Source: Rhizaria sp. SCN 62-66 (lineage: Eukaryota). From it: 42,369 nt of DNA. The stretch is taken from assembly GCA_001724265.1 (NCBI GenBank), contig MEDY01000267.1:1-42369 (forward strand), read 5' to 3'. Below are positions 1,328 through 42,034 of this stretch, one piece after another; within the stretch, counting starts at the first letter, position 1; each line of letters begins with the position of its first letter. Below the pieces are notes generated by a model. It had not been told where the DNA came from. It did not search any database and was given only the letters and a program-made list of their open reading frames with translations. Position numbers and translations under genes: made by a program.

Positions 1328-4300
1328 ATGCGCTCTCGTGCCGTCGCCAAACCCGCCGCGGCGCCGCCTCCGCCGCCGCAGCACGGAAGAAACATATCTG
1401 CGGCGCCGTTCTCTGCTAGTGATGCTGCAGCGGAGTCTGCCACAACTGCTAGCGGTGCCTTGCTAAGCCGCGGCTCTGCATTTCGCCGCAGCTTGCGACT
1501 TGCATCAGTCGCTGCTGCCTCTGGCTCAGATGTCGCCGATCCGACCGATGCGATGAGTGTCGGTGAGACTTGCTATGTTGAGCCCGCCGCTGCTCGCGAT
1601 GCACCTGACGTTCTTGAAGATAAATCTGTCTTTGCTAGCACGCACACATTGTCTACCGCTGTCACCGCTGCATCAAGCGCAGGCGGAGCAAGTGGCGCTG
1701 CGTTATCCCCGTCCGAGTCCACGAAGATCTCGGTCCATCGCAATATCGACAACAACAACAGCGAGAACACCTCGAGCACGGGTGTTCATAGCGCAAACGC
1801 AGCTGCTACTGAAGGCAACAGCAGTGACAACATTGATGCTGACTCGTGCGTGGGGACGAACTCCAGCTCAGCCGAACAGCCGCAACAGCAGCAGCAGCAG
1901 CAGCAGCGGCCGTTGAGGCTGCAGCAGCATCTCAAACTACAACAGCAAGGTGAAATCGCTACTGACACCGCTACCGCTAGTTTTAGCTGCGAGAGCAAGA
2001 CACGCAGCGACCACGAGATGCGGTTGAGTGAGTTGCGCCAACAACGCGTTAACCATGGTGCTGCTGCGGAATTGCTTGTTCCTGTCACAGCCACAATCAC
2101 TGCGGTAAACGCTGTCGATTCAACTCTAAACAACACGGCTGGTAGTCATTCAGTTGGCGTTGATAACACAGGCGACGACGATTTCAATGACGGAGACTGT
2201 GAAGACAATGACGGCAACGACACAGGCAACGTCTATAGCGATGATGATGACTATGACTTTAGCAGCGTGTACGTGCCCGTGATTGCGCCAAATCAGCTGC
2301 CCATGGCGACACATGCGGAGCTTGTAAACCAAACACGTACACTCAGTGGCAGCGCGTCATCAGTTAGCAACATCAAGAATCGCAATGTTAGCGGCGAAGT
2401 CATTGTGTCGAAGAACACTGACAATAACCGTAGCCGCACAGCCGTAAGCACAACGCCCTAGTGCAAAGCGCACGCTGATGTCACGGTAACTCCACAGCAA
2501 CATGCGACTGTAAGCACAACTCCCAAAGAGACGACTATAAGTGTGACGCCACAGCGCGTCCGTGCAAGCCATCAACAGCAGCTGCAGCAGCACCAGCAGC
2601 CGGAGCACGCCGTGGTGAGCACAGTCACAGTGCGCACCCCGCCGCGCATGGGCATTGAAGCGTCTCCCAGGCCAGGCCATTCGCTGTGTCTGCGTTTCAC
2701 CGCTGCAGGACACTGCGTGTCGTCATCAACCTACACTATTCCTGCCGCTGCTGTGGGGCCGAGCGCAACCGTTGCAACAGCACCTGGATCTTCACAGGCG
2801 GCACCACCAGCGGCAGTCCCAACAAGTGCAGTCGCGCCAGCAGTGGACACCGCGTCTCGGCGCGCAACTGCCGGGTGCGTGCCCAGCTACACTAGCCGCG
2901 CCCCTTGTCCTGTTCCTGCACTTAGTCCAGTTGCTACCGCGAGAGCTGGGTTTAGTTTACATTCGCACGTGCGCAGTCACTTGACAACTGTCTCGGAGTC
3001 GGAGGTTCCATATGGCAGAGCAGATAACGTTAATGTTACAAGCACGGCCGTTGGGTTTAAGACCGGCACCGTTGCTACAAACGCTGTGCTGGCGTCAGGC
3101 GCGGTGAATAATGTAGCCGCATTAACAGCACCGCCAACGGCAGCAATGACAGCGACTAATGCGCATGTGTCTGTGCACGAAGCCGCGGCAACTACCATGA
3201 TCAAGTTGCCAACCGGTGTCGGTGGAAACATATTGCGCCAACCCCCGCAGCAGCAACAACAGCAACGCGAACAGTTTGTGTTGCTACGACAGCAGCATCG
3301 CCAACGGCAATGGCAACGGCTACAATAGCAGCAGCTGCTGCAGGAGGAGCAGCAACGACAGGAATGGTTGCTGGCTCAACAGCAGAGTTCGCACTCTCAG
3401 AGCGTTATGCGAGATTGCTCTTGTCAGGACAGATGTAACTGCGATGCTCCAGTCCAAACCAGTGATGCTCGCAACGCAAGTCAACCTGTGCGTGTCACTG
3501 ACTTTACTGAAGCGCACGAGCGCAAGGCTAGTGATGTAATTGCAATGAGCGATTTGTGCGATGATGGTCGAAATGGCACGACGTTGCGCTTGCATCTTGA
3601 TTGCGCTTATAAGGGCGCGCATATGCGTCTTCGTGCAAACAGCCGCGCTGGCTATGACGACCGCATGGATTATAGAGCTGCAAACGACAGTGAGTGGGTG
3701 GGGACCGATCATTGGGGGTTTCGACCCTTACCATCGTTGCTGCCTGTGCCGCCGGAGGTACCTGCAGTGACTTACGCACGCGCTTCCGATTTATCACGGC
3801 AAGACGCTGTTGTTGCAACGCTGCGCGCAAACGTAGATCACGACCATGCCGACGAGACGAAACGGTCTGGCAGCTCTGGCTATGACCGCAGTAACAACAG
3901 TCATACCATTGCGGAGTTTGCTCGTGAGTATGCTCGAGTTGTGACTGCAACACCAAATAACACACCGGCTGTGACTGTGCGCGGACTGTTGCTTTCTGGT
4001 TCTCACAACACTGAGACAACGCTGCAAAGTTGTGATGCACATGTTCTTCCTTCAAGCAACGCAAACACTCTGGAGGCTGCAACTGCAAAGTCGTGGAACA
4101 ACGCTGTAGGGCAGCGTGGGTAGCACTCTGAGCAGCAACCGTTGCGAGATTCCAAGCGTGAGCGAGAGCAAAATGAGTGGCTTGATCGCAGGCAGCGCCG
4201 CTGGTCGCAGCTTGTACACACTCAAGCAAGGATGCAGACTCATTCGCGGCCACAAGAACAAGTAAATTGCAATAGCGACAGTTTTGGCGTCGGTCAACGT

Positions 4301-6763
4301 CAAGACAGCTTAGAACGCAAACAATGTGACGCAGAAATCGTTCACACAACTCTTAGTAGCAGTCGAAACATTACTGACACAGAGCTGGCGCCAGCAACTA
4401 ATCAGCGTCAATCGCGTTATCAGGCGCAATCACAGCTAACAGCTGCGCTTCGTGCTGTCTCGCTCACTCCAACTCTTGCGCAACAGTCAATTTCGCCTAA
4501 CAATCGACGTGTTTTGCTGGCTGCAGCAAGCGCCCGTGGCCGCAGTGCAAGTACGCAACCCGCGCACGTAAACGCAGACTTTGTCACAAACATCTCACGT
4601 ATGCATCAACAGCAACGGCGGCAGCAGCAGCGACAATCACACGTACAATCATAGCCTCTTAAACAGACACGAGCTCAGGCACAAGCGCAGTTGCAGTCAC
4701 AACCTCGAGGGCGAGAACAGCGTCAGTCAGGACATCAACGCTTGTCTCAACTGCAACAGCTACAGCAACAACGGTTTGCGCCATTCGAGCTAGCGCCAAC
4801 CCCTGGTCTTTTGGCTTATCTCAACACACCAAGTAGCCGCGTGCCTTACATTGGGTCTCTGTTGACTGGCACGCGTAGCATTGCAGACAATAACCCCGGC
4901 GTTATGTTCACGCCGACTTTGACCGTACAGCCACAGTCATCGGCTCTTGCAACAGCTGCGGAGACGCCCACGGTCGCGAGTGCGCTTGGCTCACCAAGAG
5001 CGGAGTTTCGCACTCAGCAAAGTCCGTATTTGGGAGCTCAGTCGCAACCTCGTGTTCAAGCCTCTTTGCTCGCATCGCTCCCGTCCCCATCTCCTCCCCC
5101 CGCACTTGACCCGCAGCACCCTTCAGTGTCGCGCTCATTTGGCGCCACGCTTGCGGCCGGCCCCGCGCTTTGCGGCCGGCTGCATCTGCTGCCGGCACCG
5201 CCGCCAGGCATGCCCCCCGCGCGGGCACTGACACCGGCACCGCAAACTGGGTCTGTTGTTGCATTGATGCATTCACTGGCTCAGGCGCGCGCGCAGGCAA
5301 TGGCGCAGAGTTACACGGATGTCGCGCTGTGTGATATAGATGATGACGACGGGAATGATATATATGATGACCATTGCTATGAGCAAAGTCTTCATTCACA
5401 TAACAACTATGGCTGTGACAGCAATGAAAACAATGGTGATAACGAGTACGACGATGATGACAACACTCCTTCGACCGACAACAATGATTGTGAGTTCGCC
5501 ACCCAGAGCCACAGCGAAAGCGGTGATACCAACGCCTGCTATCAACATCAACCTGAGCAGCAGTACCGCAGAAGTCGTAGAGTTCAGTCACACGCATATT
5601 TGCAGTCGCAGTTGCAGGTACAGCAACCGCACTCACAGCGAAACTCTAATGCGAGCACAAACCCGTTTTCTTTTGCCTTTACGTCAAGTCATAGCGTCAG
5701 CAATAGCGTGCATGTAAGCAACAGCGAACAGACTGGCTATATTGGGGTAAACTACAGTCGTTACAGCTCCGTGCGTGATCGTGGCGACCGGGACCGTGGA
5801 CACCGTCTCTTCAGCACAAACCGCGAACAGAGCATTGTGCCTGCAACTGACCGCGAGCTCGGTGTACGTGAACGTGTCAGCAACTATGCGAGCGAGCGAT
5901 CTCAAAATGAGCGCGTTGCGGCTGACCGCGACCGATCATTTGCGTGCTCATGGCCAGGTTGTGACAAGCGCTTCAGTGAGCGCGCTAATCTAAAGCGCCA
6001 TTTGAAACAAATCCATCTTGGTGTTCGTGAGTTCTTGTGTCCTGTCAACGACTGTGGGCAGCGGTTCGGTCGCAAGTCGCACTTAGTGCATCACTTGTCC
6101 GGCAGCAGGCACGCGGCTGTGGTAGATATAGCCACGATCGTTGGTGAGCGCATGTGGAAAGCTGTGATCGAGCACTCGCGGCGGCGCGGGATGCGCGCGA
6201 ATAAACGCACAAACGCGAGCAGCAGTAGTGCCAGCGGTGTCGCGAGCGGCGGAGCAGGTGTGGGTGCAGTGAAACGCGGCCGTGGTCGCAGGACTGCAGG
6301 TGCTGTTGCTGGAGTTGCAGTGAACTCAACTGGCTCAAGTTCGTATAATAGTTTAAGTGCGAGCGCAAGTGTGGGTGTTGGCGTTGCGCAGCGGCAGGAG
6401 CAAGGCCAGCTGCTTGACTCAGAGTTTGAGTGTGAACAAGAGAACGACGACGCGGATACGAGTGACAACGACAGCGACTCTGGCAGCGACGGTGATGACG
6501 GCAACGCAAACGCGACACACAACGACGACGACGATTATGATGACGGCAATAGCGGCAGCGGCAGTGATGGTGATGGTGATGAGTCGCCGCTGCAACGGCG
6601 ACAGCGTCTGCAAGATCAGGATGAAGAGGAAGAAGAAGATGAGGAGGAAGAAGACGGTCGCAGCAGCGCCGCTGTGCCTACGTCTCGACAGCGGGTGATG
6701 GAGGCAAAAAGAAGCGTGGGCAGTAGGCCTAACAGAAGCAACAACAAGTGGATGCGTAAGTGA
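1328..6763 (+). CDS. Large intronless low-complexity (Q/S/A/D-rich) protein with two C-terminal C2H2 zinc fingers, probable transcription factor; 1811 aa if four in-frame TAG codons are read as Gln
   Basis: Track ORFs 1286-2461, 2543-3328, 3368-4123, 4142-4654 and 4691-6763 are all in one frame. They are separated only by single TAG codons (2459-2461, 3326-3328, 4121-4123, 4652-4654) with no other stops in the gaps. First ATG 1328, terminal TGA 6761-6763. Fingers at about 5939-6112: FACSWPGCDKRFSERANLKRHLKQIH-LGVRE-FLCPVNDCGQRFGRKSHLVHHLSGSRH. Basic NLS-like patches and an acidic tail follow. Confidence 0.8.
2459..2461 (+). other. In-frame TAG, predicted Gln
   Basis: Context STTP-TAG. The downstream repeat units read VTPQ, STTPK and VTPQ. 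Confidence 0.7.
3326..3328 (+). other. In-frame TAG, predicted Gln
   Basis: Context CGG CTA CAA TAG CAG CAG CTG CTG CAG (RLQ*QQLLQ) in a Gln-rich helix. Confidence 0.75.
4121..4123 (+). other. In-frame TAG, predicted Gln
   Basis: Context GQRG*HSEQQP; the frame continues without a break. Confidence 0.65.
4652..4654 (+). other. In-frame TAG, predicted Gln
   Basis: CAA TCA TAG CCT (QS*P) parallels CAG TCA CAA CCT (QSQP, 4694-4705) and CAG TCG CAA CCT (QSQP, from 5039). Confidence 0.75.
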
Positions 6764-7166
6764 TGTAGTTTAGATCACAGCAATGTTGTGATTTTGTGTT
6801 TTCCTGGCAGCTTTAAGACTTTTATGCACTTGAAATCCTATGAATTGCGTTACTGTAGATTACTTTAATCATATAGGAACCAGTACTACCACAAATAAAG
6901 ACTAATATTGACTTATGAATACGGAATAACCTTAATCGACTTAGAAACACCTTCACAACGCATAGCCAAGGTGTAAGATGTACAATTGCAGTGTATTTAT
7001 TCTGTGAATCATGAGCAAATTAAAAGTACACGGCATGTTCACGCGTCTGTATACGTGCAACAAGCATGAATATGTGCACTGAAATGAAGTTTGGCCATAT
7101 CATAAGCTTTTATGCCACCCTTTTTCCCACTCGCATTCCTGGCGACAACAGCAACAGCAATAGCAC

Positions 7167-8679: not shown

Positions 8680-9803
8680 CGTGAACGAGGGAAATGCTGC
8701 TTTTAGACAGTGAGTCGTGGTCAAGGACAGGAGCAAAATATGGACGTTAGCGGTGATTTTCGCCACTAATAAAAGATAAGCTTGTAGACACTCACTCGTG
8801 ACAGTAAATTTTAGCAAAATATCCTGGATTAGCGTTAGAAATGTCATTAAAATCTAGTTGCAAGAAAGGCGTCAGCAATCGGGGCGAGCTCACCACAAAA
8901 CCGGCCGACTGGCGAATCTTGCCGTTCGCAAAAAGTCGTAACTCGTGTGTGATTTTCTGTCCGCCGAGCGACCCCAAGATGACCCCCGCAGACTTTGATG
9001 GCATTTGCCAAGATAGAGCTGGCAGTCAACACTCCGATACGCATCATATAATTTCCACATGCAATAGATATGTGTCCAATTTGTCGCCTTGAGAGAGTTC
9101 GCACGATGTGTCACTCACGTGGCCTCAGTCCGAATGGGACCAACGAGTCCCTGTCTTTGCACAATCCGAGTCATGTTGTCAGTGTTGACGAGTTAGTCTC
9201 GTAATATCAAAACAATACGACAACTTCAAAACAATTCGCTCACTTTTGCGTCGCCGATCATGAAGCTTGCGAAGGCGCTTAAGTACGACTCGCGTAAGCG
9301 GCGCGCTGTTAACTGATGATGCGTTGCAATTGTGGCAATGTTTCTATGACGGAGTTCTAAAGCTTAGTTCAATAAGGCGGCAATGAGCTCATGTTGCGGT
9401 AAGTACTGTACTACAGACGGTGACGTTTGATGTGCATCACCTAAGTTATTTCTCATGCACATCATTCCACGAGGCATACGTATTAAGTCACGATGAACGA
9501 AAGTAAACAACTTGAAAGAATTGAGATGTCTTGGTGTATGCGCAACAAAGAAAGTCGGGCCACTTGACCCGCTGTGTCATTTCAATCTTGTGTTTGAATC
9601 AATCACTCAATACACAATGGTTGTACAGGCACAACAAAAGACAAAAACATCACCAAAATAAAAAACAAAGCTAGTATAGCAAACTGGTCCATTCTAAAAT
9701 AGTTATGGCCCGACCTCGGCCCGATATTACACCACAACCACGGACGTACGTACGTCTAACTGAGTCATGTCGTGTTGCGGCATGTTTTTCTGTGTCGGTG
9801 TGT

Positions 9804-12362: not shown

Positions 12363-15162
12363 TCACTGTGGCAGAGACGGGTACTCAGCGGCCAGCACGG
12401 CCCAGAGACAGAAGACGTTCTCGGGATACTTGTGGAGCTTCACGCGGAACGCAAAGCGCGCGTCAGGGTGTCGCACGCGCAACAAATCAACCACGGCCTG
12501 CTTTTTCAGCAAAGCCGCCACAATGCGGCGTGCGTCGGCAAACGTAAACTGGAACGGAATAGCAACAAACGTGCACTCAGGAGACGTCATGTTCTCAATT
12601 GCCTGTGAAGTATAAGAGATTAAGGTTGAGGTGTTCGAGTGAGCAACTTGAAAACATCCGTGGATGCTCTGCGAGTATAACAAAACATTTGGAATATTGC
12701 AATAGCACAATATATCAACAGATAAACGTCTCGCAAAACTTGACTTCGACGGGAGGAATGTTAGTCAAACAAAATGACAATAAAGAGCAATTCATAATAA
12801 CCGTTGCTTGATTCAAATCCTCGTGCAAAAGCGTACCTGCTTCGTGAGCTCCTGCCCCAGGTCTGCGCGGCCGCCCGAGCCCAACAGCGGCTCCATCTCG
12901 TAGGCCCACAGCAGCGGCTGCAGCACGCGGCCCAGCGCTGGGCAGAAGCGCGTCGTCAGCCCGTCGACGTGCGCCGCGCGGACCGCGCTCAGCATGTCCT
13001 TGACCTGCGCCTCCACGTGGTGTGCCTCCGTCGACGCGGAGATAGAGCTGAATAGACGGCGCAAATACGGTAGCGCACATAAAAACGAATCAAAGATGAA
13101 GATATAAGGAGACAACATGTGAAAATGAAAAAGTGAGCGAATGGGGACTTAAAGCAATGTTAAACACACAATCAAGAGCTTCAGTAATATAAAATAGTCA
13201 ACAAAACACATTGAGGGTAAAAATCAAAAAATACGTCTGTTTTTAATTACGCATATCCTTTGTTTGCGAGGGTATCTGAACATACCTCTTCTGCAAGTGA
13301 AGCGGAAGCACCGGTCCCGTGGCGTTGATCGCCTCCTTGGGGAATGCCAGCCAGCCGCCGTCGGCGCCGCACACCAACCCCGCGTCGCCCGGCGTCGCCG
13401 CCGCCGCCGCCGCACCGGCGCCGTCGTCACCCTGCTGCTGCTGTGCATTTAAGTTAGGCCGCGTTGCAAAGTCAAACGAGAGCTCGTGCGGCAGCTTGTT
13501 CGGGAACAAACACGCGTAGTACGCGTCGTGGCGGAACAGCGCCGACACTGCGGTGAAGGGCAGTGGCAGCGGGGAGCCGCGGCGGCAGGGGTACGTGCGG
13601 CCGGTGACGGCGTCCCAGAAGGTCGCCGCGCCGCCCCCCGGGGTGACAGTGACCACCCACGCGTAGCTACCGGGCACCCCCGCCCCCGCCTCCCTACTAT
13701 GCGCCGCGTCGCCGCCCGCGCCGCCGCCGTTGGCGGGCGCAAGCGTGGCGGTGCCCGTAGCAACGTACGCGTCGAGCCCGAAGCCCAGCAGCAGCGAGCA
13801 GAGCAGCAACGCGTGCTCCACCGCGGCCCCGGCCCCCGCGGCCAGCAGCGCCGGCACGGACCGCCAGCCGCGCGCGCGCTCGCCGGCGGGCCCGGCGCCC
13901 GGCTCGGCGAACGGCAGCAGCCGCACAAAGCGCGCGGCGTGCAGCGCCGTCTCGAGCCCGCCCGCGGCGGCCCCGGCACCCGCGTCTGCGGAGTAGGCGG
14001 GGCGCACGAAGGAGCACGCGAGCCGCAGCGTGCCGTGCTCGTCGCGCGCGTACAGCTGCGGCGCGGGCGCGCGCGGCGGCGGCGGCAGGCGGCGCTCGAG
14101 GCGCAGCCACCATGCGCGCGCGAAGACCTGTTGCTGCGTGTGGCGGTCCGCCTCGGCGCGCTGGTCGCTCGCGATGCGCCGCGCGACCACCGCCGGCGAC
14201 ACGAACACCGGCGGAACGGCAGCCGCTGGGTTCCCCCCGGCATTGTTGTTGCTGTTCTGTGCTGTGGCGTCGAGTGAGAGCGGCGCGAGGGCGAGGCGCA
14301 GCGGCACGAGCCCGAGGATGAGGTCAGAGGCGTCGGCGGTCAGAACGAGGTCATGGTCGAGGCGGCCGTGGACGAGTGCGGGCCGCCAGTCGCAGCGGGC
14401 CGAGGCCAGCAGAGTGGCCGGGCCGCCGTCGGGCGGGTGGCGCAGGAGCAAAAACTGTAGGGGCTCGGTCACGGCCAGGTAGGACTCGAGCTTGGAGCTG
14501 GACCCGCTGGACCCGCTATACCTGCTAGAACCACTAGAACCACTGCTACTGGCCGCGGTTGCGTCTTTGTGGGGCAGGGGCGTGTAGACCGCGCTCATGT
14601 CGGGCAGCGGAAACGTGGTCTGCGCTGCGAACGCGGGCTCGGCCGTGAAGACCACGCGCGGCGTCGCAAAGCGGCGCGAGAGGAAGCACACGACGAGCGA
14701 GAGCAGGGGAGGCGTGGCGGACGCGCACTCGCTGTCTAAGAGCGCGTCGGCAAACGAGCGACCGGGACCAATGGTGACGGTAAGGTAGAGGGACTTGGGG
14801 TCCATCAGCAGGGGGCGCGCGCTGGGGACAGGGAAACGGGCGCTGGGCAGCGGCTGCGGTTGAGGCTGAGGCTGCTGCTGCTGCTGCTGCTTTTGCTGTT
14901 GCAGCTGCGACGACTGCCTTGCGCTGGAGCTGGTTTGGGTCTGCTGTTGTTGCTGCATCAGTTGCTGGGGCTCAAGGGGAAATGATTCTGTCACGGGGCC
15001 GAGCGCGGAAGACGAAGAGAGGACTGCAGAGGCGGAGAGGTCCTGGAGGAAGTGGGAATTGTTCTGCTGCGTCTGCTGCTGTTGCTGCTGTTGATCCTGA
15101 TGCTGCTGATCGCCGTAGCCGCCGCCGACTGTTTGAGTGCGGGGGGAGTGAGGCGAGTACAT
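12363..15162 (-). CDS. CEP76: Centrosomal protein CEP76-like (C2 domain plus transglutaminase-like domain), about 775 aa, 3 exons
   Basis: Exons 15162-13286, 13047-12837 and 12602-12363. Motifs LACSFVRP, HAARFVRLLPF, EHALLLCSLLLGFGLDAYVATG, AWVVT...FWDAVTGRTY and the C-terminal FAFRVKLHKYPENVFCLWAVLA match CEP76. Gln-rich N-terminal extension. Stop TGA. Confidence 0.9.
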
Positions 15163-17132: not shown

Positions 17133-17987
17133 ATGAGCAGCGCGTTCCTCTCCACCCCGATGGGGTTCCACTCCTCGCTGGAGCTCCTCAACGGCTACCC
17201 CGCCGACGTCATCACCTCCATGACTTACGACATCGCGGCGGGCTCCCCCGCGGCCGCGCTCGGAGTCAAGTACGCCAAGCGCCTCGCCGCCGCCGCCGCC
17301 GCCGCCGCCTCCGCCTCGAGCAGCGCCGCCGACACGCCCGTGGTGACGCCCGCCCAGGTCGCCGGCGCGCTGCATGCGATCGCCTTTGTGCTCCGCAGCG
17401 CGAAGCATGACAAGCTGGCCTCGCCCGACGCGCTAATCCCCGCGTTGCTGCAGCACACGTCGCTCACGCCCAACACGGCGGGAGTGCTGGCCGCCGCCGT
17501 GCTCTCGCCCGCCACGCCCATCGCCGCCGCTAGCGCCGCTGCGGCAGGGTTCTCGCTCGGCCAGGTCGTCGGGTTTGACTGGAAGGTCGGCGTCGGGCTA
17601 GCTTCCTCCGAGTGCGCCAACCTCAAGGCGCCCTTCATCTCTGTTGTCTGGAAGATCGGTCCGTCAATCAACCACACCAAATCCTGGATATATGAATGCA
17701 ATCTGCTGCAGCAGCGATGATTTTATTAAAATCGAGTGAAATTATATTATTTATAGTCTGTGTCCTGCTTTTTGATGACTCTTCAATCATTTAGCTCACG
17801 TATATCCTCTTGTCTTCTCCTTATTATCTACTCGTATGTGTGCGCTCTTGGTCATGTATGCTGCTGCCTGTCCTGCTCAGCCGACGCCAGCGGCACTCGC
17901 AGCTACCCCATGGAGCTCTCGGTGGCGCAGTTCCAGGATCTCCTCGCCTCCTTCACCGACCTCGCTTCCCAACTCGACGCGGCTTAA
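17133..17987 (+). CDS. COMMD6: COMM-domain protein (COMMD6-like), about 210 aa, 2 exons
   Basis: Exons 17133-17658 and 17881-17987 (donor GTCCGT, acceptor CAG). COMM domain LGQVVGFDWKVGVGLASSECANLKAPFISVVWKIADASGTRSYPMELSVAQFQDLLASF. Stop TAA. The paralog assignment is less certain than the family. Confidence 0.8.
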
Positions 17988-21267: not shown

Positions 21268-23010
21268 ATGGGTTGTGTTTCGAGGTACGTCAACACTCGC
21301 TATATTTCTATTTCCGGCTTCTATCTTGTGCTTGTTGTCGGATTCTGGGACGAGAATCTGTCGTCGCCAATTGTCGGGGTTGCTCCCCATCCCATCGATG
21401 GAAGGGTTTCTTTGGTGCATTATTGGGTGGCAATCCGGGCACGGCTGAGCTCCTGCATAGGTTTATTATATCATTTCACTCTGTTGCTACACTGTATGCG
21501 CGCAGTATCCTGCTCCTGCTCGACCGCGCCCCACGGCAATCGCCCGCCGATGCTGGAGGCGCCACACGCCTCCCCCACTGCCTCGTGACGCTTGACTGGC
21601 ATTTGGGCTACCCCGCTCCTCCCCTCCGCTCACCCCGCCTCGCCCTTTGTCTTCGCCCCTTTGTCCCCCACGCCCCGCGCCGTGCCGCACGCCCCCACAG
21701 TCAACAGCTGACGCCGGAACAGCGCCGCAAGCTCGAGGAAGAGCGCGCCCGCTCCAAGGCCGTCGAGGCCCGCATGAAGAAGGACCACGAGACGGACCGT
21801 CAGATCCACAAGCTCCTCCTGCTCGGCGCCGGTGGTACGTCAAACAGACACGAAACATTATGCAGCGCTACACAACCACTTTATCTCTCTATATCTGCAA
21901 TTACTCTCCCGCCGCTTGCCGCTTTTCCGCCGCTATATTCCCTCTCATTTCCTTGCCTCCTCTTCCCTTGTTGCTCTTTGCTTTACCGCCCCTGTCTGTC
22001 TATCGCGCCGCTCCTAACGCCACCTGCCCGCCTCACCTGTTATTCGACACAATGACGCCATGTAACTACCCCACGATGCAGAGTCCGGCAAGTCGACCCT
22101 GTTCAAGCAGATGATCACGATTTACGGCAAGGGTTTCCCCGAAGAGGAGCGCAAGAACTACACTTCGATCGTCTACAACAACATCATCTCGTCGATGAAG
22201 ACGCTTGCGCAGCAGGTCACCCGCTACGGCGTCGTGCACCCCGAGAACGCGGAAGTGCTCAACTACATCGTGCATCAGGTCAAGGACGACGTGATCGACG
22301 TCCCCACAGGCTCGGCCATCATGCAGCTCTGGAACGACCCCGCCATCCGCGCCGCCTACGACCATCGCGCCGACTTCCAGCTCAACGACTCGGCCGAGTA
22401 CTTTTTCAACCGCGTGCACTTCGTGATGCAGAGCGGGTACATCCCCGACGAGCAGGACGTGCTGCGCTCGCGCGTGCGCACCACGGGCATCGTCGACAAC
22501 ACCTTCGTCATCGACCGCAGCAAGTTTCAGATGTTCGACGTCGGCGGTCAACGTAACGAGCGCAAGAAGTGGATCCACTGCTTCGAGGGCGTCACGGCCG
22601 TCATCTTCGTCGCCGCCATCAGCGAGTACGACCAGAAGCTGTACGAGGACGAGAACACCAACCGTCTCGTCGAGGCGCTCAACCTGTTCGAGGAGATCTG
22701 CAACAGCGACTACTTCCAGAAGACCACCATGATCCTTTTCCTCAACAAGCGCGACATCTTCAACAACAAGATCATGAAGGTGAACCTGAGCAACTACTTC
22801 CCTGAGTATCCGGGTCCCGACCGCGACCCGATCACGGCGCAGGAGTGGATCCGCGAGCAGTTCGTCAACCGCAACGTGCTGCGCAACAAGATCATCTACC
22901 CGCACATCACTTGCGCAACCGACACCAACAACGTTGCCGCCGTGTTCAACGCCGTCAAGGAGACGATCATTCGCAACGCGCTCCAGGACGCCGGCCTCCT
23001 CATGTCCTAA
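21268..23010 (+). CDS. Heterotrimeric G-protein alpha subunit, about 359 aa, 3 exons
   Basis: Exons 21268-21284 (MGCVS, myristoylation/palmitoylation motif), 21701-21834 and 22082-23010, both donors GTACGT. G-boxes intact: KLLLLGAGESGKST, RVRTTG, DVGGQRNERKKWIHCF, FLNKRD, TCAT. Stop TAA. Confidence 0.97.
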
Positions 23011-27934: not shown

Positions 27935-29202
27935 TTAGTCACAACAGCCGAAGAAGCCCTTGAGCACCGCGCGTTCCTCGACGGGCTTCGGGACCGTCTT
28001 GAACACGGCGACGATGTCCTCGCGCTCAGCCTCCTCCGCGATCTCCATCGGGCTCTCCCCGGCGTCGTTGCGTGCGTAGGGGTTCGCGCCGGCCTTGACG
28101 AGGAGCTGGCAGCACTCGAGGCTGCCCGCGCGCGCGGCCGAGTGCAGCGGTGTGGCGCGCGAGGGCGGCCGCTCCGTGGCCGCGACGTCGGCGCCGTGCG
28201 CGATGAGCAGCGAGAGCACGTCCGGTACAGAATACGAGGCCGCCTTGTGCAGCGCCGTCCCGCCGCTGTACCGCTCGGTCTGGTTCGGCTGCGAAGCGGC
28301 GAGGGCGGCGTCAAGACGGACAAAAAAAAACAGTTTGTCATTATGAATGAGATGAGCATGGCAAATGTGGAAATACTATATATCGCTGTGTTAGAGCACA
28401 AAGCATCGAGTCGTATAATGAACACAACAAGATATAGTACATCCAAGTTTTGCTTTCAAATGCTAGCACTAAAACGAGATACACGCAATGTTCGACGATT
28501 CCGCGCGAGGTAGCGAGGCAACGTACGTTGGCTTTGTTCTTGAGGAGGTACTCCACAACGGGGGTGCGGCCACGGTAGGTGGCGCCAATAAGGGGCGTGT
28601 GTGAGTTGACGTCGAGACAGTTGATTGAGATGCCGAGGGCAAGTAGTTCCTTCACCTACAGGAATATAAATAAACACAAGTTGACAGAGCGACAAGAGCA
28701 GAAGAGCCGTTAGAGACAGCAAGTGAGTGGATATCGGCAGGATTGAGACTTGATAGCGCAATACAAAAGGAGCTAGTGTAGCAGCAGTGTAATAGTACTA
28801 TATCTCGGAATTAAGCTTAACATGCCCAATATTAAGAGATATGCATGTCTGGGGCGTAGCAGAAAGATGTGTGAAACGTGTGTACGTACACGCTCGAGCT
28901 CGCCCGCCTTGCAGGCGTTAACAAGAGCCGTCTCGCGCGTAAAACCGTCGATGTATGTCTCCTCGTTAAACCTGCACGTGCGAATACAGCATCGGGTGTG
29001 GCCACACGGAGAAATAGAGCAATGTGAGGAGTGAGACGGGACAGCTAAGGAGAATGACAGAGAAACGAAATTAGGGAGTCTGAAAGCGATCAAGGATATA
29101 ACCATGCGGAAAACAACAAGCGCGTAATACGGACCTGTCCTTAGAGCCGGTAGTCTCCTTAGTGACAATAGCGGGCCGAGCCGCGTCGACAGAGGTGGCC
29201 AT
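27935..29202 (-). CDS. Small ankyrin-repeat protein with C-terminal di-cysteine motif, about 210 aa, 4 exons
   Basis: Exons 29202-29135, 28971-28890, 28655-28527 and 28288-27935 join in frame. Ankyrin units TALVNACKAG, TPLIGATYRG...LLKNKANP, TALHKAA...LLIAHGADV and TPLHSAARAG...LLVKAGANP. Ends GFFGCCD-TAA. Confidence 0.88.
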
Positions 29203-29972: not shown

Positions 29973-32900
29973 TCACTGGTGCGGCCCCCGCGGCAGCTGC
30001 TGCTGCTGTTGTTGATAGTGTTGCTGCTGCTGGTACTGCTGCTGCGGCCTGTTGCCACCGCCCCCGAACTGCTGCGGGCCCTGGCCCTGAGGGTAGTTGT
30101 ATCCATGTTGCTGATGTTGGTGCTGGTTCTGCTGAGACCCTTGGTGCGCGTAGCCGTGCTGCTGGTACCCGCGCTGCTGCCCCACAAACTGCTGATACTG
30201 CTGATGTTGCTACTGGTACTGCTGCTGCGGGTACTGCTGCTGCTGCTGCTGCTGTTGCTGCTGTTGCGAGCCGGGCACCGCCTGCATGGCGCGGCCCTTG
30301 CGCGCGCCCTTGAGCTGCTCCGCCGTCGGCGCGGGCAGCCCCAGCAGCTCGTGGTGCGTCTTGAGAGGGCCCAGCTCGCCCGACTGCGACAGCTGCTCGA
30401 TGGCGCTCTTAAGCGCGGGCATAAACAACTGAGGGGGGAAATAGGTTCAAAGCAAGAGATCAAAGGAAAAAAGATCGCACAGTGTTAGCGATAAAAGCTC
30501 ATTGAAAATAAAAGATTGGTAGGTTCATACAAAACAATGAGAGACAATATTATGATGAAATCACATGTGAAAGAAAGTGAACGCGAAATATGACATGACA
30601 GCAAACGTACCGAAGCGTGGACCCTGGCGACGGCGGCCAGCTGCGCCTTGTTCATGCGCAGCATGACGTCCACGGCCGCGGCCGCCGTCGCCGCCGCGGC
30701 CGCAGCGCCCGCGGGCGTGTCGGCGGCGGAGCTGGTGCTGGGGGACTTGACGAGCGCGAGCAGCAGGTCGGAGAGGTACTGCACCTGGCACGCCTCGGCC
30801 AGCGCGCCGCGCCGGGACAGCGCCTGCGACACCACGCTCAGCGCCAGCCCCGCCGTCACGCCGCCGTTCGCGGCGCTGAGCGAGAGGCTCGTCGCGTTCG
30901 GCAGCGCGCTGGCGCCGCCCGCCGCCGCGGCCGCAGCGGACGCGTCGGCAGCCGCGCGAGCGGCGTTGTTGTCGGGCGCGTTGAGCGCGAGGTTCGTGAG
31001 CAGGAACAGCGCCGGCGGGGCGGGCTGCGCGCGCGCCATCGCGAGCAGCACGGCGGGCAGCCCGGTGACGGCGACGCGGCCGCTGCTGACGACGAGCGTG
31101 CGCAGCTTGTCGGCCACGAGCGCGGGCGCGGCAGCGGCGACGGGCAGCGCCGCGAGCAGCTCCGTCACCTCGAGCGCCGACACGCGCGGCGGTGTGATTG
31201 TGTCGAGCACGCGCGCGAGGGCCAGCTCCCACACGCGGCCCGCGAGCGCCAGCAGCGCGGGGAGCTGCTCCGCGAGCTCCTGCTTGGAGAATGTCGGCAG
31301 CAGCGGCAGCAGGTAGCGCACCTCAGTGCCGCCCGAGCGCGCCAGCAGCGCGCGCGCCGTGCGCTGGAAGGGCGCCGACTGCAGCGTGGCCAACACAGCC
31401 TCGCGCGCCTTGGCCAGCGCCGCCGTCTGCGCCTGCAGCCCGGCCTCGGGCGTCGCGGCGGCCGCGTTGGCGGCCTCGGCAGCGGCAATGTCCTGCGCAG
31501 ACACCTGCGTGAGCTGGTCCAGCAGCTGCAGCACGGCCGGCTGCGCCGCGGGCGGGCTCTGCTCCAGCGCCAGCAGCAGGTCCGCGCTCGCCGCCACGGG
31601 CTCCACGCGCAGCATGGTGTGGATCGCGTCGCGCACCCACTGGTGCGGCGTCACGGCGTACGCGCGCAGCAGCAGCGCCACAGCCGCGGGCGCCGCGCGT
31701 GCCGCCGCGAAGCCCAGCCGCAGCACGCGCGCCGCCTCGGACTCGCGCGCGCGCCGCAGCGCGTCGACCGAGTCCAGGAACGCCTCGGCGCGGCGTGCAA
31801 GCCGCAGCTGCGCGCCCAGGTCGCCGGCGGCGAGCAGGGCCGCGTCGGCCTTGTCCTCCTCGTCCTCGGGCTCGTCGCCGTCCTTCGCCTCGGCATCCGG
31901 CGCGCTCGCATGCACGCTAGATGTGGTCAGGTCGAGGGCGGCGACGATGTCGGCCACGGAGCGCGAGCCGCCGGAACTGCTGCTGCCGCTGCTCGACGAG
32001 CCGTCGTTCAGGAGCACGGTGCCCGAGGCAGCATCGCCCGCGGTCGAGGCCAAGCTGACGCCGAGAACACCTGTCTGGCCGCCCTGCTGCCTGCGCAGCG
32101 AGGCCACGCGCGAGCGCAGCTCGCCCGCAACGGCGCGCGAGGGCCGCGGCAGCGCGCCGCAGCCGCGAGGGAAGAGCGGGTCCGCAAGCGCGGCGAGGCG
32201 CGCGGCGACGAAGGCCAGCGCGCGCGGGCGCACTGCGCGCAGGGCCAGGACGTCGCGCAGCAGCGCAAGCGCGCGCTGGGCCTGGTCGTGTTGGCGGGAG
32301 AGGCACTGCGCGAGCACGAGCAGCAGCGCGGGAGCGCGGGCTGCGGGGCGACGCGCGATGAGCGTGTGCAGCGCGACGAAGCCGACCTCGCAAGCGGGCG
32401 AAGGCGAGGCCCACAGAGCGGCGAGGTACGCCATGACGCTGTGCGTGATCACGGGCGCGCCAGTGAGCACCGCACGCAGGGCGGGCTGGTCGAAGCCTGC
32501 GGACGGGAGCCCGCCGGCTCTGACCGCTGAGGCGGAAGTCAGGTTGGCGTCGCCAGTGGAAGTTAAGCCGCGGATGAGGGTGAGCAAGTGAGAGTCGTAC
32601 ATCGGCAGCAGAGACGAACAAGACGTCACAGCATTCGCACTCGAGCTCGGACTCGTCGCACTGTCCGTCATCGCGTTCAAATCACGCGCGTCACTGGCGT
32701 TACTGGCGTTGATGTGGTGGCAGAGCGAGAGCGCGCGCCAGTGCGCCTCGACAACGTTCACGGGGGGCGCGGCCACGCGCGCGGGCGCGGCTGCCGCGGC
32801 GTCAGCTTCGGTCATGATCGCGGCCGACGCCGCCGCGCCCGCGGCCGCAGCGGCGTCGGCGGTCGCGCCCTGCTTGAGCGCGACAGCGCTGGCGCCGGAC

Positions 32901-35900: not shown

Positions 35901-36785
35901 TGGCGACGCGGCGGCCGCGGCGGCCGCGGCGGCTTCCGCGCGCGCGCGGACGCGGGCCTCGGGGGGGAACTCGCCGTCGAACTCGTGGGTGACGCTGTCG
36001 TCCGCCTCGCGGCTGTTATCGTCCGTCATCGCAGCAGAGCCCGTGGTGGGAGAGAATCCCTGCCCGCGGTCGCTGCGGTCGGAGCGCGAGGCGAAGAAGA
36101 GCCTGCGCGCGCGGCGCGCGCGGCGGAGCCTCGCGGCGGCGGCGGCGGAGCCGGAAAGCTGCGCGACGGCGCACAGCGCGGGCCGCAACAGGTGCACCGC
36201 GGTGCGGAGCACGCGCCGCACGAGCAGCGAGTCGCCCGCGTCCGAGACTAGGAAGGCCGCCAGCGCGGGGAACACCACGGGCAGCAGGCGCGCGCCGTGC
36301 CGCGGGTCCACGGCGGCGCGCTCGAAGAAGAGCACCAGCGCCGTCCGGACGAGGCTGTCGCCGGCTGCGAATAATGTGCCTGCGGCGCCAGCGGCTCCAG
36401 CGGCGAAGTCTGCGCCCGCGGACTTGTCCTGCGCAACGGGGTTAAAGAGCGGCGAGGTGGTCGGCGAGGCGAGGTAGGCGAGCGCGTCGACGGCGTCAGG
36501 CGCGGTGGGCAACAGCACGTACATCTGCTGGATTGCCACGAGCTGGTGCGCCTGCGTCGGCGCCGCCAACAGCGTCTCGATGAGGCCAGAAAGCGTCGAT
36601 GGAACCATAGCGGCCGCAGACGATGACGCGGAGGCAGCGTCTGCGCCGCCCGCGGCGGCGGAGGCGGCGCCAGAGGCGGCCGCGCGACGGGGATCCACGC
36701 TAACACCACTGGCGCCAGGAGCTGAGGCGCCGGCGGCCGCGGCAGCGCGCGCGCGGGGATCCGCGGGGTTGCGGCGCGGGTCCAT
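29973..36785 (-). CDS. SYMPK: Symplekin/Pta1-like 3'-end processing scaffold, expanded with Ala-rich insertions and a Q/Y/G-rich tail; about 2038 aa, 5 exons, one in-frame TAG
   Basis: Exons 36785-35364, 35184-34852, 34669-33569, 33415-30611 and 30428-29973 join in phase 0. Symplekin-like motifs: ALKLLEMAVLAL, ALLWLHTLY, GFVALHTLIARRP, EVRYLLPLLPTFSKQELAEQLPALLAL, MLRMNKAQLAAV. The last exon has TAG at 30212-30210 inside a poly-Q tract and ends TGA at 29975-29973. Confidence 0.75.
30210..30212 (-). other. In-frame TAG in the symplekin tail, predicted Gln
   Basis: The minus-strand 18-mer CCGCAGCAGCAGTACCAG occurs twice (30230-30213 and 30047-30030). TAG follows the first copy and CAG follows the second. 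Confidence 0.78.
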
Positions 36786-37672
36786 GGCGAGTGTGTCCTT
36801 GACTGGTGTGGAGACAACGCCTGGAGGGCGTGTTCTCAGTGAAGAACGGGTGAACGGAAGAAGAACAACGTCAAGCGAGGGACGGCGAGTGTGTCTTCAG
36901 TCTGGAGTCGGTTGTCGATCTACACGTGGAACAAGCGCAAACGTTCGTTAAACAAAAATAAAATATAAATAATAGATATTAAACTCACTATTCTATATCA
37001 GGCACAAGATCGCATTTAAAAACAATGAGCATCCATCGCAATCCACCAGTTCAAAGTTGACTTACTTCCCCTGGCAGGATTGACTCGTTGGCCGCTGGAC
37101 CGGCTTCTCTAGCTGCGGTGGGTCAACGTTACGATGTTCAGGAATGACTTTGCTGATGCAGTGTAGCATCGCGATAAAGTCATGTGAGGGTAGCATTAAG
37201 ATGAAAAGAAGTTATGTTTACAACGAACTACATATTTATTTTGTCATCATTCATAACTAACAACAAAAATGCCCTCTAGTAATTGTCTCTGCGCAAATGT
37301 AGATAGACTGACCACCAGGAGCAAGAAAGACAACACAATTATGATTTCTTTTCTTTTCGACTAAAAAAATAGAACTACTACTATGATACTGTTACTGCTA
37401 TAGTACCCCAACACCACAACACAACGCAACTCAACGCAACGCTCTTGCCTTCAACACAAACACTCATGTGAAGCCACAGTGTGGCTCACTGAGAAAAGCA
37501 GCAGTGTACTACCGATAGTAGCATCGACACAACACGCCCGTCACAGTCTGGCTTTAGACTGCGAGCGGAAACACACCGTTACTGAACTTGATGTCCTTGT
37601 TGTTGCTCTTGTTTGTTACTGTTATCGTCGTTGTTGTTGTTGTGGTTGTTGCGATCCGCAATAGCTCACCTC

Positions 37673-39945
37673 TTACTTCTTCTTGCCGCCCGCAGCCGCC
37701 TTGCCGCCGGCCGCGGCCTTGGCGCCGCCAGCAGCAGCGCCGCCCTTGGCACCGCCCTTAGCGCCGCCCTTGGCGGAGCTCGTGGCGGCCGCGGCAGCGG
37801 CGGCGTCGGCCTTGTCGAGCGCATCCTTGTCGCCCTCGGTGTCGATGAAGAAGTAGTTGCCCGCGCGCTTCTGCTCGGTGTCCTTCTGCGAGTTGAGCTT
37901 GTTGATACGCGGGCGGAAGTTGACGGGGTCGCGGCGGAACGTGATGTTGAGGTCCTTGAGGAACTGGTTCATGCCCGACACAAGGCCCTGGGGCGCGTTG
38001 GCCTTGGCCTTAACACCAGGCTCACCCTCGTACACGATGACGCGGTCGGCGAGGTAGGTCGACATGATGAAGTCGTGCTCGACGATGAAGGCCGTCTTGC
38101 GCGCGTGCATGATGAAGCGCTTGATGACACGCGCGGCAACGATACGCTGCTCCGAGTCGAGGTACGCCGACGGCTCGTCGATGAGGTAGATGTCGGCGGG
38201 CAGGCCGAGCGAGAGCACGAGGGCCACGCGCTGGAGCTCACCACCGGAGAGCGTCTTGACCTTCTGGTCGATGATAGCGTCGATCTTCATGGGCTTGAGC
38301 ACGTCCGAGATAAACTGCGAAGCCATCATGGCAACCGAGATCTTGGCATGGAGCAGCTGGCGCACGGTGCCCTCGAACTGCGGCGCGATCTTCTGCGGCT
38401 TGTACGAGACGTTCATCTGGGGGATGTGCACGTCCTCGTCGTCGGGGGGCAACAGGCCAGCGAGCATGCGGATGAAGGTCGTCTTGCCAGTGCCGTTCTG
38501 GCCCAGCAGCACGACAATCTCGGAGGTGTTGAACTCGCCCGCAGCGACGTCGAGCTGGAAGCCCTTGAGCGTCTTGGTCATGGCGGGGTACGGCACGCCG
38601 TGGTTGCGCACGCTCTTGCCGTCATCCGCCTGGAACGACTCGGCGACGCGGAAGGTCAGCTCGACGTCGCGGAAACGCATGTTCTCGGTCGGGATGAAGC
38701 CGGCGAGAAAGACGTTGATGCCTTCGCGAACCGAGTAGGGCATGGTGACGACGCCGTAGGCAGCCGCGAGGCCGTAGAGGCAGCAGACGAAGTCGGAGAG
38801 GTAGTCAAGCACCGAGAGGTCGTGCTCGACGACGATGACGTAGGTCGACTCAGAGCACATGTCACGGATCGACGCGGCCGCCTGCAGACGCTGCTTGACG
38901 TCCAGGTACGACGAGGGCTCGTCGAACATGTAGATGTCTGCGTTCTGCACGCACGTCATGGCGATGGCAAAGCGCTGGAGCTCACCACCGGAGAGCACGG
39001 CGATCGACGAGTCGAACTTGTGCTTGAGCTCCATGGCGGTGAGCACGGCCTCGAGCACATTGCGGTCGTCCTTCTTGGTGAGGAGGTCGCCGACGGTGCC
39101 CTCGACGGCCTTGGGCAGCACGTCGACGTACTGCGGCTTGATGATCGCGCGCAGGTTGTCCTCGAGCAGCTTCGTCAGGAAGTTCTGGATCTCGGAGCCG
39201 CGGTAGTGCGTCAAGATCTCCTCCCAGTCGGGCGGCGAGTCGAAGCGGCCGAGGTTGGGCTTGAGCTTGTTGGCCAGGATCTTGAGCGCGGTGGACTTGC
39301 CGATGCCGTTGGTACCGACGAGGCCGAGCACCTGGCCGCGGCGCGGCGTCGGCAGGCGGTGAAGCTTGAACGAGTTGGGGCCGTAGCGGTGGGTCGTCTG
39401 GGAGTCGAGGTTCTGTGGTGGCGGGAGTACAGCGCATCAGTATCGGGTGCGGCGAGAGAGAGTTGTTGTGGGAGAGCGGGAAAGAAGGAGTGCGCGTGAT
39501 GAAGGGTGGAAAGAGAAGGAGTTGGAGCGGAAACAGGGGGGATTTAAGAATGAAAAGGTGAGATAAAAGTAGATGTGTTGCTGATGTAAGATTATAACTC
39601 AGTTTCAGAGCAAAATGACGATGATGAGGAACGTTAGAGAGCATTTTGCGGAGCGAAGGTCAAGGTGGGCGATGGAGCACGAACCTTGGGGAGATTGATA
39701 ATGGAGATGGCCTCGAAGGGGCACTTCTTGGTGCAGATACCGCAACCAATGCAGAGGGACTCGGAGATGAAGGCGAGCTTGTCGGTGGGCTTGACCTCAA
39801 TGCACTGCTTGCCCATCTTGACGACGGGGCAGTTCCTCTTGCACTCCTGCGCACACTTCTTCGGCTTGCACTTGCCGTCATCGACGATGGCAATACGCGT
39901 CTGCGCGTCGCCGTCGCCCTTGGAGGCGGAAGCCTTCTTACTCAT
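37673..39945 (-). CDS. ABCE1: ABCE1/RLI1 ribosome-recycling Fe-S ATPase, about 666 aa, 2 exons
   Basis: Exon 1 39945-39685 carries the Fe-S motifs [15 protein letters not shown] and [12 protein letters not shown] (donor GTTCGT). Exon 2 39412-37673 has two NBDs ([42 protein letters not shown]) and the hinge [16 protein letters not shown]. Stop TAA. Confidence 0.98.
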
Positions 39946-40471: not shown

Positions 40472-42034
40472 ATGTTCAAGCAACTTGAGCAGCGCTTTAT
40501 TCGCGCCATGGGTACGCCGCTCTGACACGCCACACCACCAGCTCTTTGCGTATACTTGTTTTTAACAGTGACTCCGAGACACGTCTCCTTCCTGACGTCA
40601 CGCCCCGCGCACCGCTCGCGCGTCGCAACTTGTGTTCACTTCTCACTACCCACGTCTTTATATCTCACCCTCTCGCCATCTTGTCTAACTCTCTCCGATG
40701 GTTATCCCTTCTGTGCGACTCCACCGACAGGCCCGAACGCGATTGCGGACTTGAGACGCTCGCTGGTGCCTGGTGTGCGCATCCTCACAATCGGCGGCGA
40801 CCAGCTCACCGGCAAGTCCACGCTCGCCAAGGACCTCGCCGCGCGGCTCCGCGCCCCGCACGTCTCCGCGGGCTCCTTTTTCCGCGCCGTGGCCCGCGAG
40901 CGCGGGCTCAACGTGGCCGAGCTGTCGAAGCTGGCTGCGCTGGAGCAGGACGGCGACGACAACATCGACGTGCGCATCGAGTACGAGACCTGCAAGACCA
41001 TCATGTCCGGACTCGTCAACGGCGCAGTGCCCCCCGTCCCGTCCTCCGCCTGCGCAGACAGCACCGGCACCGCTGAGTCATGTGTTCCCGACGCTCCGCG
41101 GACGGTGATCATCGAGGGCCGCAACCCGGCGGTGATGGCGGCTTACTGCCGCACCCTGGGCAAGACCGAAGTCCTCAGTCTGTACCTCTCGTGCTCGCCG
41201 CGTGTGCAGGCGCGCCGCTTCGTCGGCCGCGAGATCGACCGCGCGCTCTCCTTCGCCATCGACGCGCTTCTGCCCCCGCCCCCCGCCCATAGTAGCGCCG
41301 TCAAGCCGCACGGTGCCCACGGTCTCTCTGCCCACGGTCACTCCGCTGCTGCGACCCACGGTCACCGCGCGGCGACGGGTCCCTGCGCCCCCGGCCACAG
41401 CGTGCACACGACCCCACGCACGCACAGCCACCCCGCGGGCGCCCCCGGTCACCTCGCCCACGCGGCGGCCACCGAGGCCGGTGTGGAGAGCGGGGGCGAG
41501 TACGCGTCGATCGAGGAGGTGGCGGCCGCGCTGGAGTCCTTGGCGGCGCAGCAGTCGCCCGCCGTCGAGGCCGCGCTCGCCGCCGCGCGCGCCAAGAACG
41601 CCAGCGCGGCGCACAGCAGCAACAGCAACAGCAGCAGTGCGAGTGCGAGTGTCAGTAAGGATGGCGAGTGGAGCTGCAAGCGCATCGGCGAGGTCGCGCG
41701 CGAGCTGGCGATGACGCAGAGCCGCGACAACGATGACCGCGCGCGCTTCCTCGCGCTTTACGGGCTGCCGCAGTCGCTCGACTACCGGTCTCCCGCGCTG
41801 TACTCATGTGTGGTCGACACCTCGCACCACGTGCCCAGCGAGACGCTCGAGGTCATCGAGCGCTTCCTCGCCGCGCAGGGCATCGGCCGCGAGATGCTGC
41901 GCGACGGCGACGCGGGCGCCGCGGCGCGCGCGGCCGAGGCAGAGGCCAAGGACAAGCAGGCGCAGGCGCAGGTGCAGGCGCAGACTGGAGCCACAGCTGG
42001 GGCCAGCGGCGACAAGATGGATGCGAAGCTTTGA
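40472..42034 (+). CDS. Archaeal-type (type 2) cytidylate-kinase-like P-loop kinase with a His-rich insertion and C-terminal PTS1 (AKL), about 447 aa, 2 exons
   Basis: Exon 1 40472-40511 (donor GTACGC) and exon 2 40731-42034. Motifs ILTIGGDQLTGKSTLAKDLA, VSAGSFFRAVARERGL, IDVRIE, VIIEGR, LYLSCSPRVQARRFVGRE and RDNDDRARFLALYG...YSCVVDTS follow the archaeal Cmk pattern. Stop TGA. Confidence 0.72.

Follow-up and report, generated by a model that had tools for sequence, protein, structure and literature searches.

In-frame UAG as a rare and very probably sense codon, moderately likely to mean glutamine, in a wastewater protist probably of the Guttulinopsis group

Introduction

Contig MEDY01000267.1 of Rhizaria sp. 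SCN 62-66, a 42,369-bp stretch of eukaryotic nuclear DNA with 44-71% GC (hereafter the window), raises the question of whether UAG is still a stop codon in the organism it comes from and, if it is not, which amino acid it specifies. Five in-frame TAG codons were found in the window, four of them in a zinc-finger gene (2459, 3326, 4121, and 4652, forward strand) and one in the last exon of a symplekin-like gene (30212-30210, reverse strand). These are the coordinates given by an earlier, sequence-only reading of this DNA, which had concluded that UAG encodes glutamine (Gln) and that UAA and UGA remain stops. The analysis presented here bears out two parts of that conclusion, UAG being very probably a sense codon and UAA and UGA apparently still acting as terminators, while the Gln identity, probable once UAG is accepted as sense, proved to be context-based. 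The statement as a whole is moderately likely to be correct. The case is built on frame maintenance, on the tail of the symplekin-like gene, and on the stop codons used across the window, and not on conservation.

Results and discussion

A 5.4-kb frame broken by TAG alone

The zinc-finger coding sequence (CDS; Table 1) comprises 1,812 codons, among which TAG occurs four times, TGA once, as the terminator, and TAA not at all. The claim that the gene contains neither frameshifts nor internal in-frame TAA or TGA codons was thus confirmed. Each of the remaining five frames over 1328-6763 contains 8-25 TAA, 9-29 TAG, and 22-81 TGA codons. The enclosing frame, which extends from 1151 to 6763 (1,870 codons), is broken by TAG alone, an additional TAG being located at 1253, upstream of the first ATG at 1328. 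Read with the standard code, the locus consists of five back-to-back open reading frames (ORFs) in one and the same frame (401, 288, 264, 176, and 702 codons). In a control in which each stop codon was made sense in turn, TAG alone fused five long ORFs; when TAA or TGA was made sense, only off-frame ORFs of GC-rich genes were merged, with no comparable fusion. Public protein collections carry the gene as five ORF calls cut at the TAGs (P0284-P0288), and standard-code metagenome annotation of this organism is therefore systematically truncated. One of these pieces, P0288, is a 99%-identical strain variant.

The two C2H2-type zinc fingers constitute the only recognizable domain of the protein; their C..C..H..H spacing is apparent in the translation, and their zf-C2H2 match (E = 0.003, 18.4 bits) lies below the Pfam cut-off of 25.2. 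When residues 101-1300 were compared with 1.84 billion protein representatives, no homologues covering the TAG sites were found, all five matches being fragments of the gene itself.

Assembly error is not the source of the TAGs, as a comparison with contigs of other runs showed. The X2 contig (1919-5729) and the X4 contig (1919-5558), which stem from other studies, carry all four TAGs and show no differences from the window, and the X5 contig (3748-5057), whose sole difference lies at 4671, confirms the TAGs at 4121 and 4652. At 2459 and 3326 there is one unlisted difference per X5 contig, so that confirmation by X5, a run labelled RNA-Seq that behaves like DNA, is limited to the other two sites. 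Over the gene, the X5 strain differs at five positions (1452, 1738, 1811, 1857, and 4671); one change is synonymous and four alter the residue (S>T, E>K, T>M, and R>Q), and its stops are unaffected. Short contigs of a poly-A RNA run (X7) were also found within the gene (2627-2885, 5064-5499), none of them across a TAG; as DNA can be present in such libraries, X7 was not counted as expression evidence.

The tail of the symplekin-like gene

The fifth TAG lies in the Q-rich tail of a gene assigned to symplekin on account of a weak Symplekin_C match in an upstream exon (E = 0.0027, 18.1 bits, cut-off 25). Along the 234 nt that lead from this TAG to the TGA, GC content by codon position is 0.82/0.28/0.77, whereas after the TGA it is 0.42/0.40/0.40. 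The T content rises from 10% to 27% past the TGA, as in nine other genes, whose 3' flanks are T-rich. Composition in the tail therefore switches at TGA and not at TAG.

Two ORFs with high GC content at third codon positions (GC3) are found upstream of the symplekin-like ORF on the reverse strand (33551-34738, 395 codons; 35349-36896, 515 codons). They have no Pfam match, and may represent either exons of one very long symplekin-like gene or a separate gene.

Genes of the window end in TAA or TGA

Fourteen recognizable genes were reconstructed in the window from Pfam profiles, ORFs, and splice motifs, several of these models being based on ORF, composition, and splice motifs alone. Five of them end in TAA, nine in TGA, and none in TAG, which reproduces the stop table proposed earlier, and no in-frame TAA or TGA was detected in the about 7,000 codons counted. 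The C-terminus of G-alpha (...AGLLMS) is identical to that of P0261, an 80%-identical relative; ABCE1 has a K-rich tail (...GGKKK) whose end resembles those of P0122, P0004, and the Guttulinopsis protein P0023; and the CEP76_C profile reaches position 139 of 140, five residues before the TGA. The presence of TAA at the homology-supported ends of G-alpha, ABCE1, and the S-adenosylmethionine synthetase gene (MAT), and of TGA directly after CEP76_C, supports the view that UAA and UGA still terminate translation.

In-frame TAG, at five occurrences in about 7,000 codons, is known from two genes and in neither of them stands at a conserved column. No TAG falls within any Pfam-matched stretch, in agreement with what had been claimed, and the conserved genes that were counted contain none, among them ABCE1 (587 codons), G-alpha (314), CEP76 (639), the abhydrolase, and the kinase. 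The coding part of the TGA-ended terminal ORFs listed in Table 1, the zinc-finger gene and the symplekin-like gene aside, contains no TAG either. The remaining apparently in-frame TAGs of the window are intronic or lie in 5' leaders, and some of them are 3' splice sites.

Glutamine as the probable meaning of UAG

The contexts of the TAGs point to Gln as the probable residue, given that UAG is sense. In the symplekin tail, an 18-nt sequence (CCG CAG CAG CAG TAC CAG) occurs twice, 61 codons apart, the next codon being TAG after one copy and CAG after the other. At the fourth zinc-finger site, QS*P (the asterisk standing for TAG) is echoed twice by QSQP, one of these echoes lying 16 codons downstream. 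The number of Q residues among the ±5 neighbours of the five TAGs is 0, 5, 3, 2, and 7, respectively, and a test of neighbour composition with a flat prior, based on the about 7,000 codons of all genes, returned posteriors of 0.94 for Q, 0.03 for Y, 0.004 for L, and 0.0003 for S.

In the scheme that we propose, UAG would be a rare sense codon of the host, most likely for Gln, with UAA and UGA as terminators. It would be decoded by a tRNA with the anticodon CUA charged with Gln, the release factor eRF1 would have lost recognition of UAG, and the codon would be accepted chiefly in disordered proteins of weak bias and low expression. The window itself holds no tRNA gene detectable by ARAGORN, in either intron-containing or intronless mode, and no eRF1 gene is among the genes recognized in its 42 kb.

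Placement of the host

Placing the host by ABCE1 phylogeny had been proposed earlier, and was carried out with two maximum-likelihood analyses (LG+G4, 23 rows; LG+C20 PMSF quick search, 44 rows). In these trees the window sequence clusters with P0004, P0003/P0122, and Guttulinopsis vulgaris (together with P0016/P0017) with 100% SH-aLRT support. Guttulinopsis and Mataza are the only named Rhizaria included; Mataza was placed elsewhere, and Guttulinopsis is the sole named member of the clade. The host is thus probably a cercozoan of the Guttulinopsis group (Sainouroidea), an uncultured protist of wastewater and bioreactors, a placement that is provisional because it is based on one gene only. 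The K-rich C-terminal extension of ABCE1 (...DKADAAAA...GGKKK; 37673-37830, reverse strand) is also present in P0023 (Guttulinopsis), P0004, and P0122, and may be a derived character common to the clade.

The window's DNA is recurrent in wastewater, bioreactor, and activated-sludge runs: 15 of the 17 listed runs, from eight studies, hold at least part of it, and six hold at least half of its sampled words. Guttulinopsis, Rosculus, and other sainouroids have been reported from wastewater plants (PMC8827150). The best ABCE1 match in the searched collections is 75-76% identical, and no close relative was found there. All 14 ABCE1 loci in genome contigs come from prokaryotic metagenome-assembled genomes, with at most 46% identity (12 of them archaeal by title or 41-46% identical), and among the best 80 of 562 loci in metagenome contigs, all at most 71% identical, none represents DNA of this organism or of close kin. 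A relative is known by its proteins, a CEP76 (P0124, 64%) and a G-alpha (P0142, 80%) encoded on one 9,742-bp metagenome contig, for which reason the neighbourhood from CEP76 to G-alpha (13243-23010 in the window) seems to be conserved. The G-alpha of the window itself, P0141, occurs on contigs of up to 172,059 bp.

Two other affinities were considered and rejected. The best named matches of CEP76 are ochrophyte stramenopiles; with identities of 27-36%, this was not accepted as a taxonomic signal, since a word-based choice of candidates is biased towards Ala/Gly-rich proteins from GC-rich genomes. A ciliate host was discarded on the basis of the ABCE1 placement and of genome style.

Weighing the alternatives

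Several observations weigh against UAG being a sense codon, and most of them concern the zinc-finger gene, from which all the strong evidence comes. Its N-terminal 1,200 residues have no homologues outside this organism, its GC3 is 0.53 versus about 0.8-0.9 in neighbouring genes, an atypical codon usage, and four of its five strain single-nucleotide polymorphisms (SNPs) are non-synonymous; codon-usage log-odds trained on the other genes clearly favour the frame, out of six, in only three of the five inter-TAG segments, whereas it ties in one segment and loses in another. Such an orphan gene, with weak codon bias and mostly non-synonymous polymorphism, is compatible with a standard code, under which the locus would be a recently inactivated, fast-evolving orphan with four nonsense mutations and the symplekin-like gene would stop at its TAG, with a CAG-rich 3' untranslated region behind it. 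All three frames are open around and past the symplekin TAG, so that the open frame there proves nothing, and CAG is the commonest Gln codon (84 CAG and 59 CAA in the zinc-finger gene), which makes TAG the likeliest product of a nonsense change (0.46-0.49). Even so, a decaying-gene model with the gene's codon content gives a probability of 0.04-0.055 that four out of four nonsense changes are TAG, and by our estimate four such hits would imply on the order of a hundred substitutions. The 5.4 kb of repeat-rich sequence show no frameshift, TAA, or TGA, and all four TAGs stay constant among assemblies of different studies, from strains ~5 SNPs apart over the gene. The compositional switch of the symplekin tail likewise speaks against termination at its TAG, as does the lack of TAG at any of the 14 gene ends, although the latter, based on a small sample, is a weak argument, because the clade may use few UAG stops in any case: all but one of the available transcripts of G. 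vulgaris end in UAA, while one Rosculus gene ends in UAG (PMC5304391). On balance, we regard a standard code as quite improbable. An ambiguous UAG, which would terminate in some contexts and be read through in others by a near-cognate or suppressor tRNA, would suit the great rarity of the in-frame codon and its restriction to disordered Q-rich proteins, such rarity being expected of a leaky or young reassignment; but four successive read-through events per mRNA demand near-complete efficiency, and no gene of the window stops at UAG, which renders this option very improbable. Finally, the TAGs might be removed before reaching the ribosome, by unconventional in-frame introns or by U-to-C editing of the mRNA. 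TAG is a common 3' splice site here, and serves as such for two in-frame introns in the TPH-domain gene. Nevertheless, the 200 nt around each TAG contain 15-20% T compared with 30-47% in three defined introns, no in-frame consensus intron (GTRNGT..YAG) could span the TAG at 4652, and over the other TAGs the candidate introns consist of ordinary ORF sequence (198-597 nt). At the RNA level the listed joints were low-complexity artefacts (side 20-24 nt) and confirmed no intron. Removal of the TAGs by splicing or editing is extremely improbable.

With UAG taken as sense, the alternative to Gln is that it stands for leucine (Leu), as in the rhizarian exLh, or for Tyr, Lys, Glu, or another residue, the Q-rich tracts being merely mutable from CAG to TAG. 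This alternative gains from the host's grouping with Guttulinopsis in ABCE1, as UAG is read as Leu, with UAA and UGA as stops, in exLh, the sister of G. vulgaris (PMC5304391). Moreover, within the zinc-finger gene the neighbour test is nearly flat (0.13-0.43 for Q and 0.06-0.15 for L, depending on window size) and barely splits Q from L, W, or R. The second site lies among Leu residues (RLQ*QQLLQ), and the Gln contexts claimed for four of the TAGs, correct as they stand, do not hold fully for the first, since VSTTP* has its nearest internal counterpart in VSTTPK, with Lys (AAA), and not in TPQ. Against Leu, exLh is a heavy user of UAG (PMC5304391), whereas here TAG is missing from the conserved genes within about 7,000 codons that include 630 Leu codons; this shortage, which contrasts with exLh-type abundance, is at the same time compatible with Leu at the five sites. 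The posterior over all genes is very low for Leu, and the symplekin site, with seven Q among ten neighbours and an 18-nt repeat that matches TAG with CAG, favours Gln over Leu and the other residues. A residue other than Gln is accordingly unlikely, though less so than any of the preceding alternatives, and Gln is retained as the probable meaning.

Comparison with known codes and possible origin

Nuclear codes in which UAG and UAA differ in meaning are few, and comprise exLh, Iotanema, Scotinosphaera, Protocruzia, some phyllopharyngeans, and PL0344 (PMC5304391, PMC11687900). In exLh, a member of the Sainouroidea, 384 in-frame UAGs were reported in 71 genes, with 56 UAA and 15 UGA stops (Panek et al. 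2017, PMC5304391). Like exLh, the window's organism would reassign UAG only and keep UAA and UGA as stops, and the two probably belong to the same cercozoan group. However, UAG is abundant at conserved Leu columns in exLh, whereas in the window it is rare, located in Q-rich contexts, and absent from conserved genes; in addition, exLh is insect-associated and the window's organism is free-living in wastewater and bioreactor samples. This difference in UAG usage speaks in favour of an event that was separate or much younger, or of another meaning of the codon. In the eRF1 of exLh, Ala occupies the position that corresponds to human Leu69. In the literature, supplementary files aside, no rhizarian UAG reassignment besides that of exLh was found, and none for Rosculus or Guttulinopsis genomes; the text of the R. 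vilicus genome paper (PMC10770858) contains no occurrence of 'stop codon'.

The fornicate Iotanema spirale, with UAG as Gln and UAA and UGA as stops (PMC5304391), uses the same code as that proposed here (NCBI table 15 semantics) and is, like the host, not a ciliate. It belongs to the Metamonada, however, and its UAG meaning was established at conserved columns and is accompanied by a change in the GTS motif of eRF1, whereas ours is context-based. Among ciliates, UAG encodes Gln in Protocruzia tuzeti and in two phyllopharyngean lineages, and Leu in other phyllopharyngeans (PMC11687900). These ciliates share with the code proposed for the window the uncoupling of UAG from UAA, and exemplify repeated capture with differing residues within one clade; in contrast, the window's ABCE1 does not group with Euplotes, the one ciliate included, and the window carries many genes over its 42 kb, with 50-71% GC and introns of 180-240 nt. 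The green alga Scotinosphaera, in which UAG is Ser and UAA is retained as a stop (cited in PMC11687900), is a UAG-only case outside ciliates, with a different residue and lineage. Codes in which both UAA and UAG are Gln, found in many ciliates, Ulvophyceae, hexamitin diplomonads, Streblomastix, and Amoeboaphelidium (PMC11687900), resemble the proposed one in the capture of a stop for Gln and in the occurrence of TAG in Q-rich tracts, but here TAA is a working terminator, placed at the homology-supported ends of G-alpha, ABCE1, and MAT, and is never found in frame. In PL0344, UAA is Lys and UAG is Glu (PMC11687900).

The sequence-only reading had further proposed an independent, undescribed origin of the code. 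This idea is weakened by the ABCE1 clade with Guttulinopsis vulgaris, that is, with the group of exLh (UAG as Leu, PMC5304391), because the host may be kin to exLh, a kinship that the sequence-only reading, which cited exLh as an example, did not note. That UAG was captured twice and independently within the Sainouroidea, by Gln here and by Leu in exLh, can be put forward only tentatively. If this took place, the small clade of dung and sewage cercozoans would be a hotspot of UAG reassignment outside the ciliates, to which near-exclusive UAA terminators such as those reported for G. vulgaris (PMC5304391) may have predisposed it, and would parallel the repeated reassignments of phyllopharyngean ciliates. 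More generally, the proposed code, if true, would add one lineage to the few eukaryotes that split the meanings of UAG and UAA. New cases test current ideas on stop-codon capture, such as prior loss of UAG stops, origin of a tRNA(CUA) by mutation, and relaxed eRF1 recognition, and a free-living kin of exLh that is recurrent in wastewater would allow one to ask whether a single clade changed UAG twice, to different residues.

Gene content and other features of the window

The 14 genes, in addition to the zinc-finger, symplekin-like, CEP76, G-alpha, and ABCE1 genes and the 3' end of MAT, encode a small secreted protein, a TPH-domain protein, a Sas10/Utp3/C1D protein, a COMM-domain protein, an alpha/beta hydrolase, an ankyrin-repeat protein, and a P-loop kinase-like protein, with one gene left without assignment. 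Coordinates are collected in Table 1.

Table 1. Coordinates of the in-frame TAGs, gene ends, and associated features in the window (asterisk, TAG; positions on the reverse strand are given in ascending order)
Feature	Position	Strand	Remarks
Zinc-finger CDS	1328..6763	+	Intronless; 1,811-residue low-complexity protein; four in-frame TAG; TGA end
TAG 1	2459..2461	+	Codon 378, AVSTTP*CKAH; unchanged in X2, X4; P0284 ends just 5'
TAG 2	3326..3328	+	Codon 667, QWQRLQ*QQLLQ; unchanged in X2, X4; P0286 ends just 5'
TAG 3	4121..4123	+	Codon 932, AVGQRG*HSEQQ; unchanged in X2, X4, X5; P0285 ends just 5'
TAG 4	4652..4654	+	Codon 1109, HVQS*PLKQ; unchanged in X2, X4, X5; P0287 ends just 5'
Two C2H2-type zinc fingers	5939..6070	+	Near C-terminus, 3' of all four TAGs
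Last exon, symplekin-like gene	29973..30428	-	Q/Y/G-rich tail; one in-frame TAG; TGA 29973-29975
Intron before that exon	30429-30610	-	182 nt, GTACGT..TCAG
TAG 5	30210..30212	-	PQQQYQ*QH, Q-rich tail
TAA, MAT	332..334	+	S-AdoMet_synt_C profile 39-137 of 138, end 7 residues before stop; 5' part of gene outside window
TAA, COMM-domain gene	17985..17987	+	Last exon from about 17880
TAA, G-alpha	23008..23010	+	Exons 21699-21833, about 22078-23010
TAA, ankyrin-repeat gene	27935..27937	-	
TAA, ABCE1	37673..37675	-	Exons about 39643-39945, 37673-39418
TGA, CEP76	12363..12365	-	Exons 13243-15174, about 12816-13040, 12363 to about 12600
TGA, P-loop kinase-like gene	42032..42034	+	
Further TGA stops	6761-6763	+	
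	8101-8103	-	
	9804-9806	-	
	15675-15677	-	
	18510-18512	-	
	24981-24983	-	

Base composition varies along the window, from 50-55% GC at 1-10000 (with a GC3 near 0.53 in the zinc-finger gene) to about 71% at 30000-36000. GC3 reaches 0.84-0.86 in the symplekin-like region, and all but one of the in-frame TAGs are located in the low-GC3 zinc-finger gene. Two AT-richer segments (26300-27800 and 23100-24900; about 44-53% GC) contain no convincing ORFs and no Rfam matches, of which there are none in the whole window.

Introns are canonical (GT[AG][CT]GT..YAG), about 180-240 nt long, and pyrimidine-rich. Two introns of the TPH-domain gene (10266-10444 and about 11240-11405, both on the reverse strand) have TAG acceptors and are open in the exon frame when TAG is taken as sense; a naive scan for ORFs would mistake them for stretches with in-frame TAG codons.

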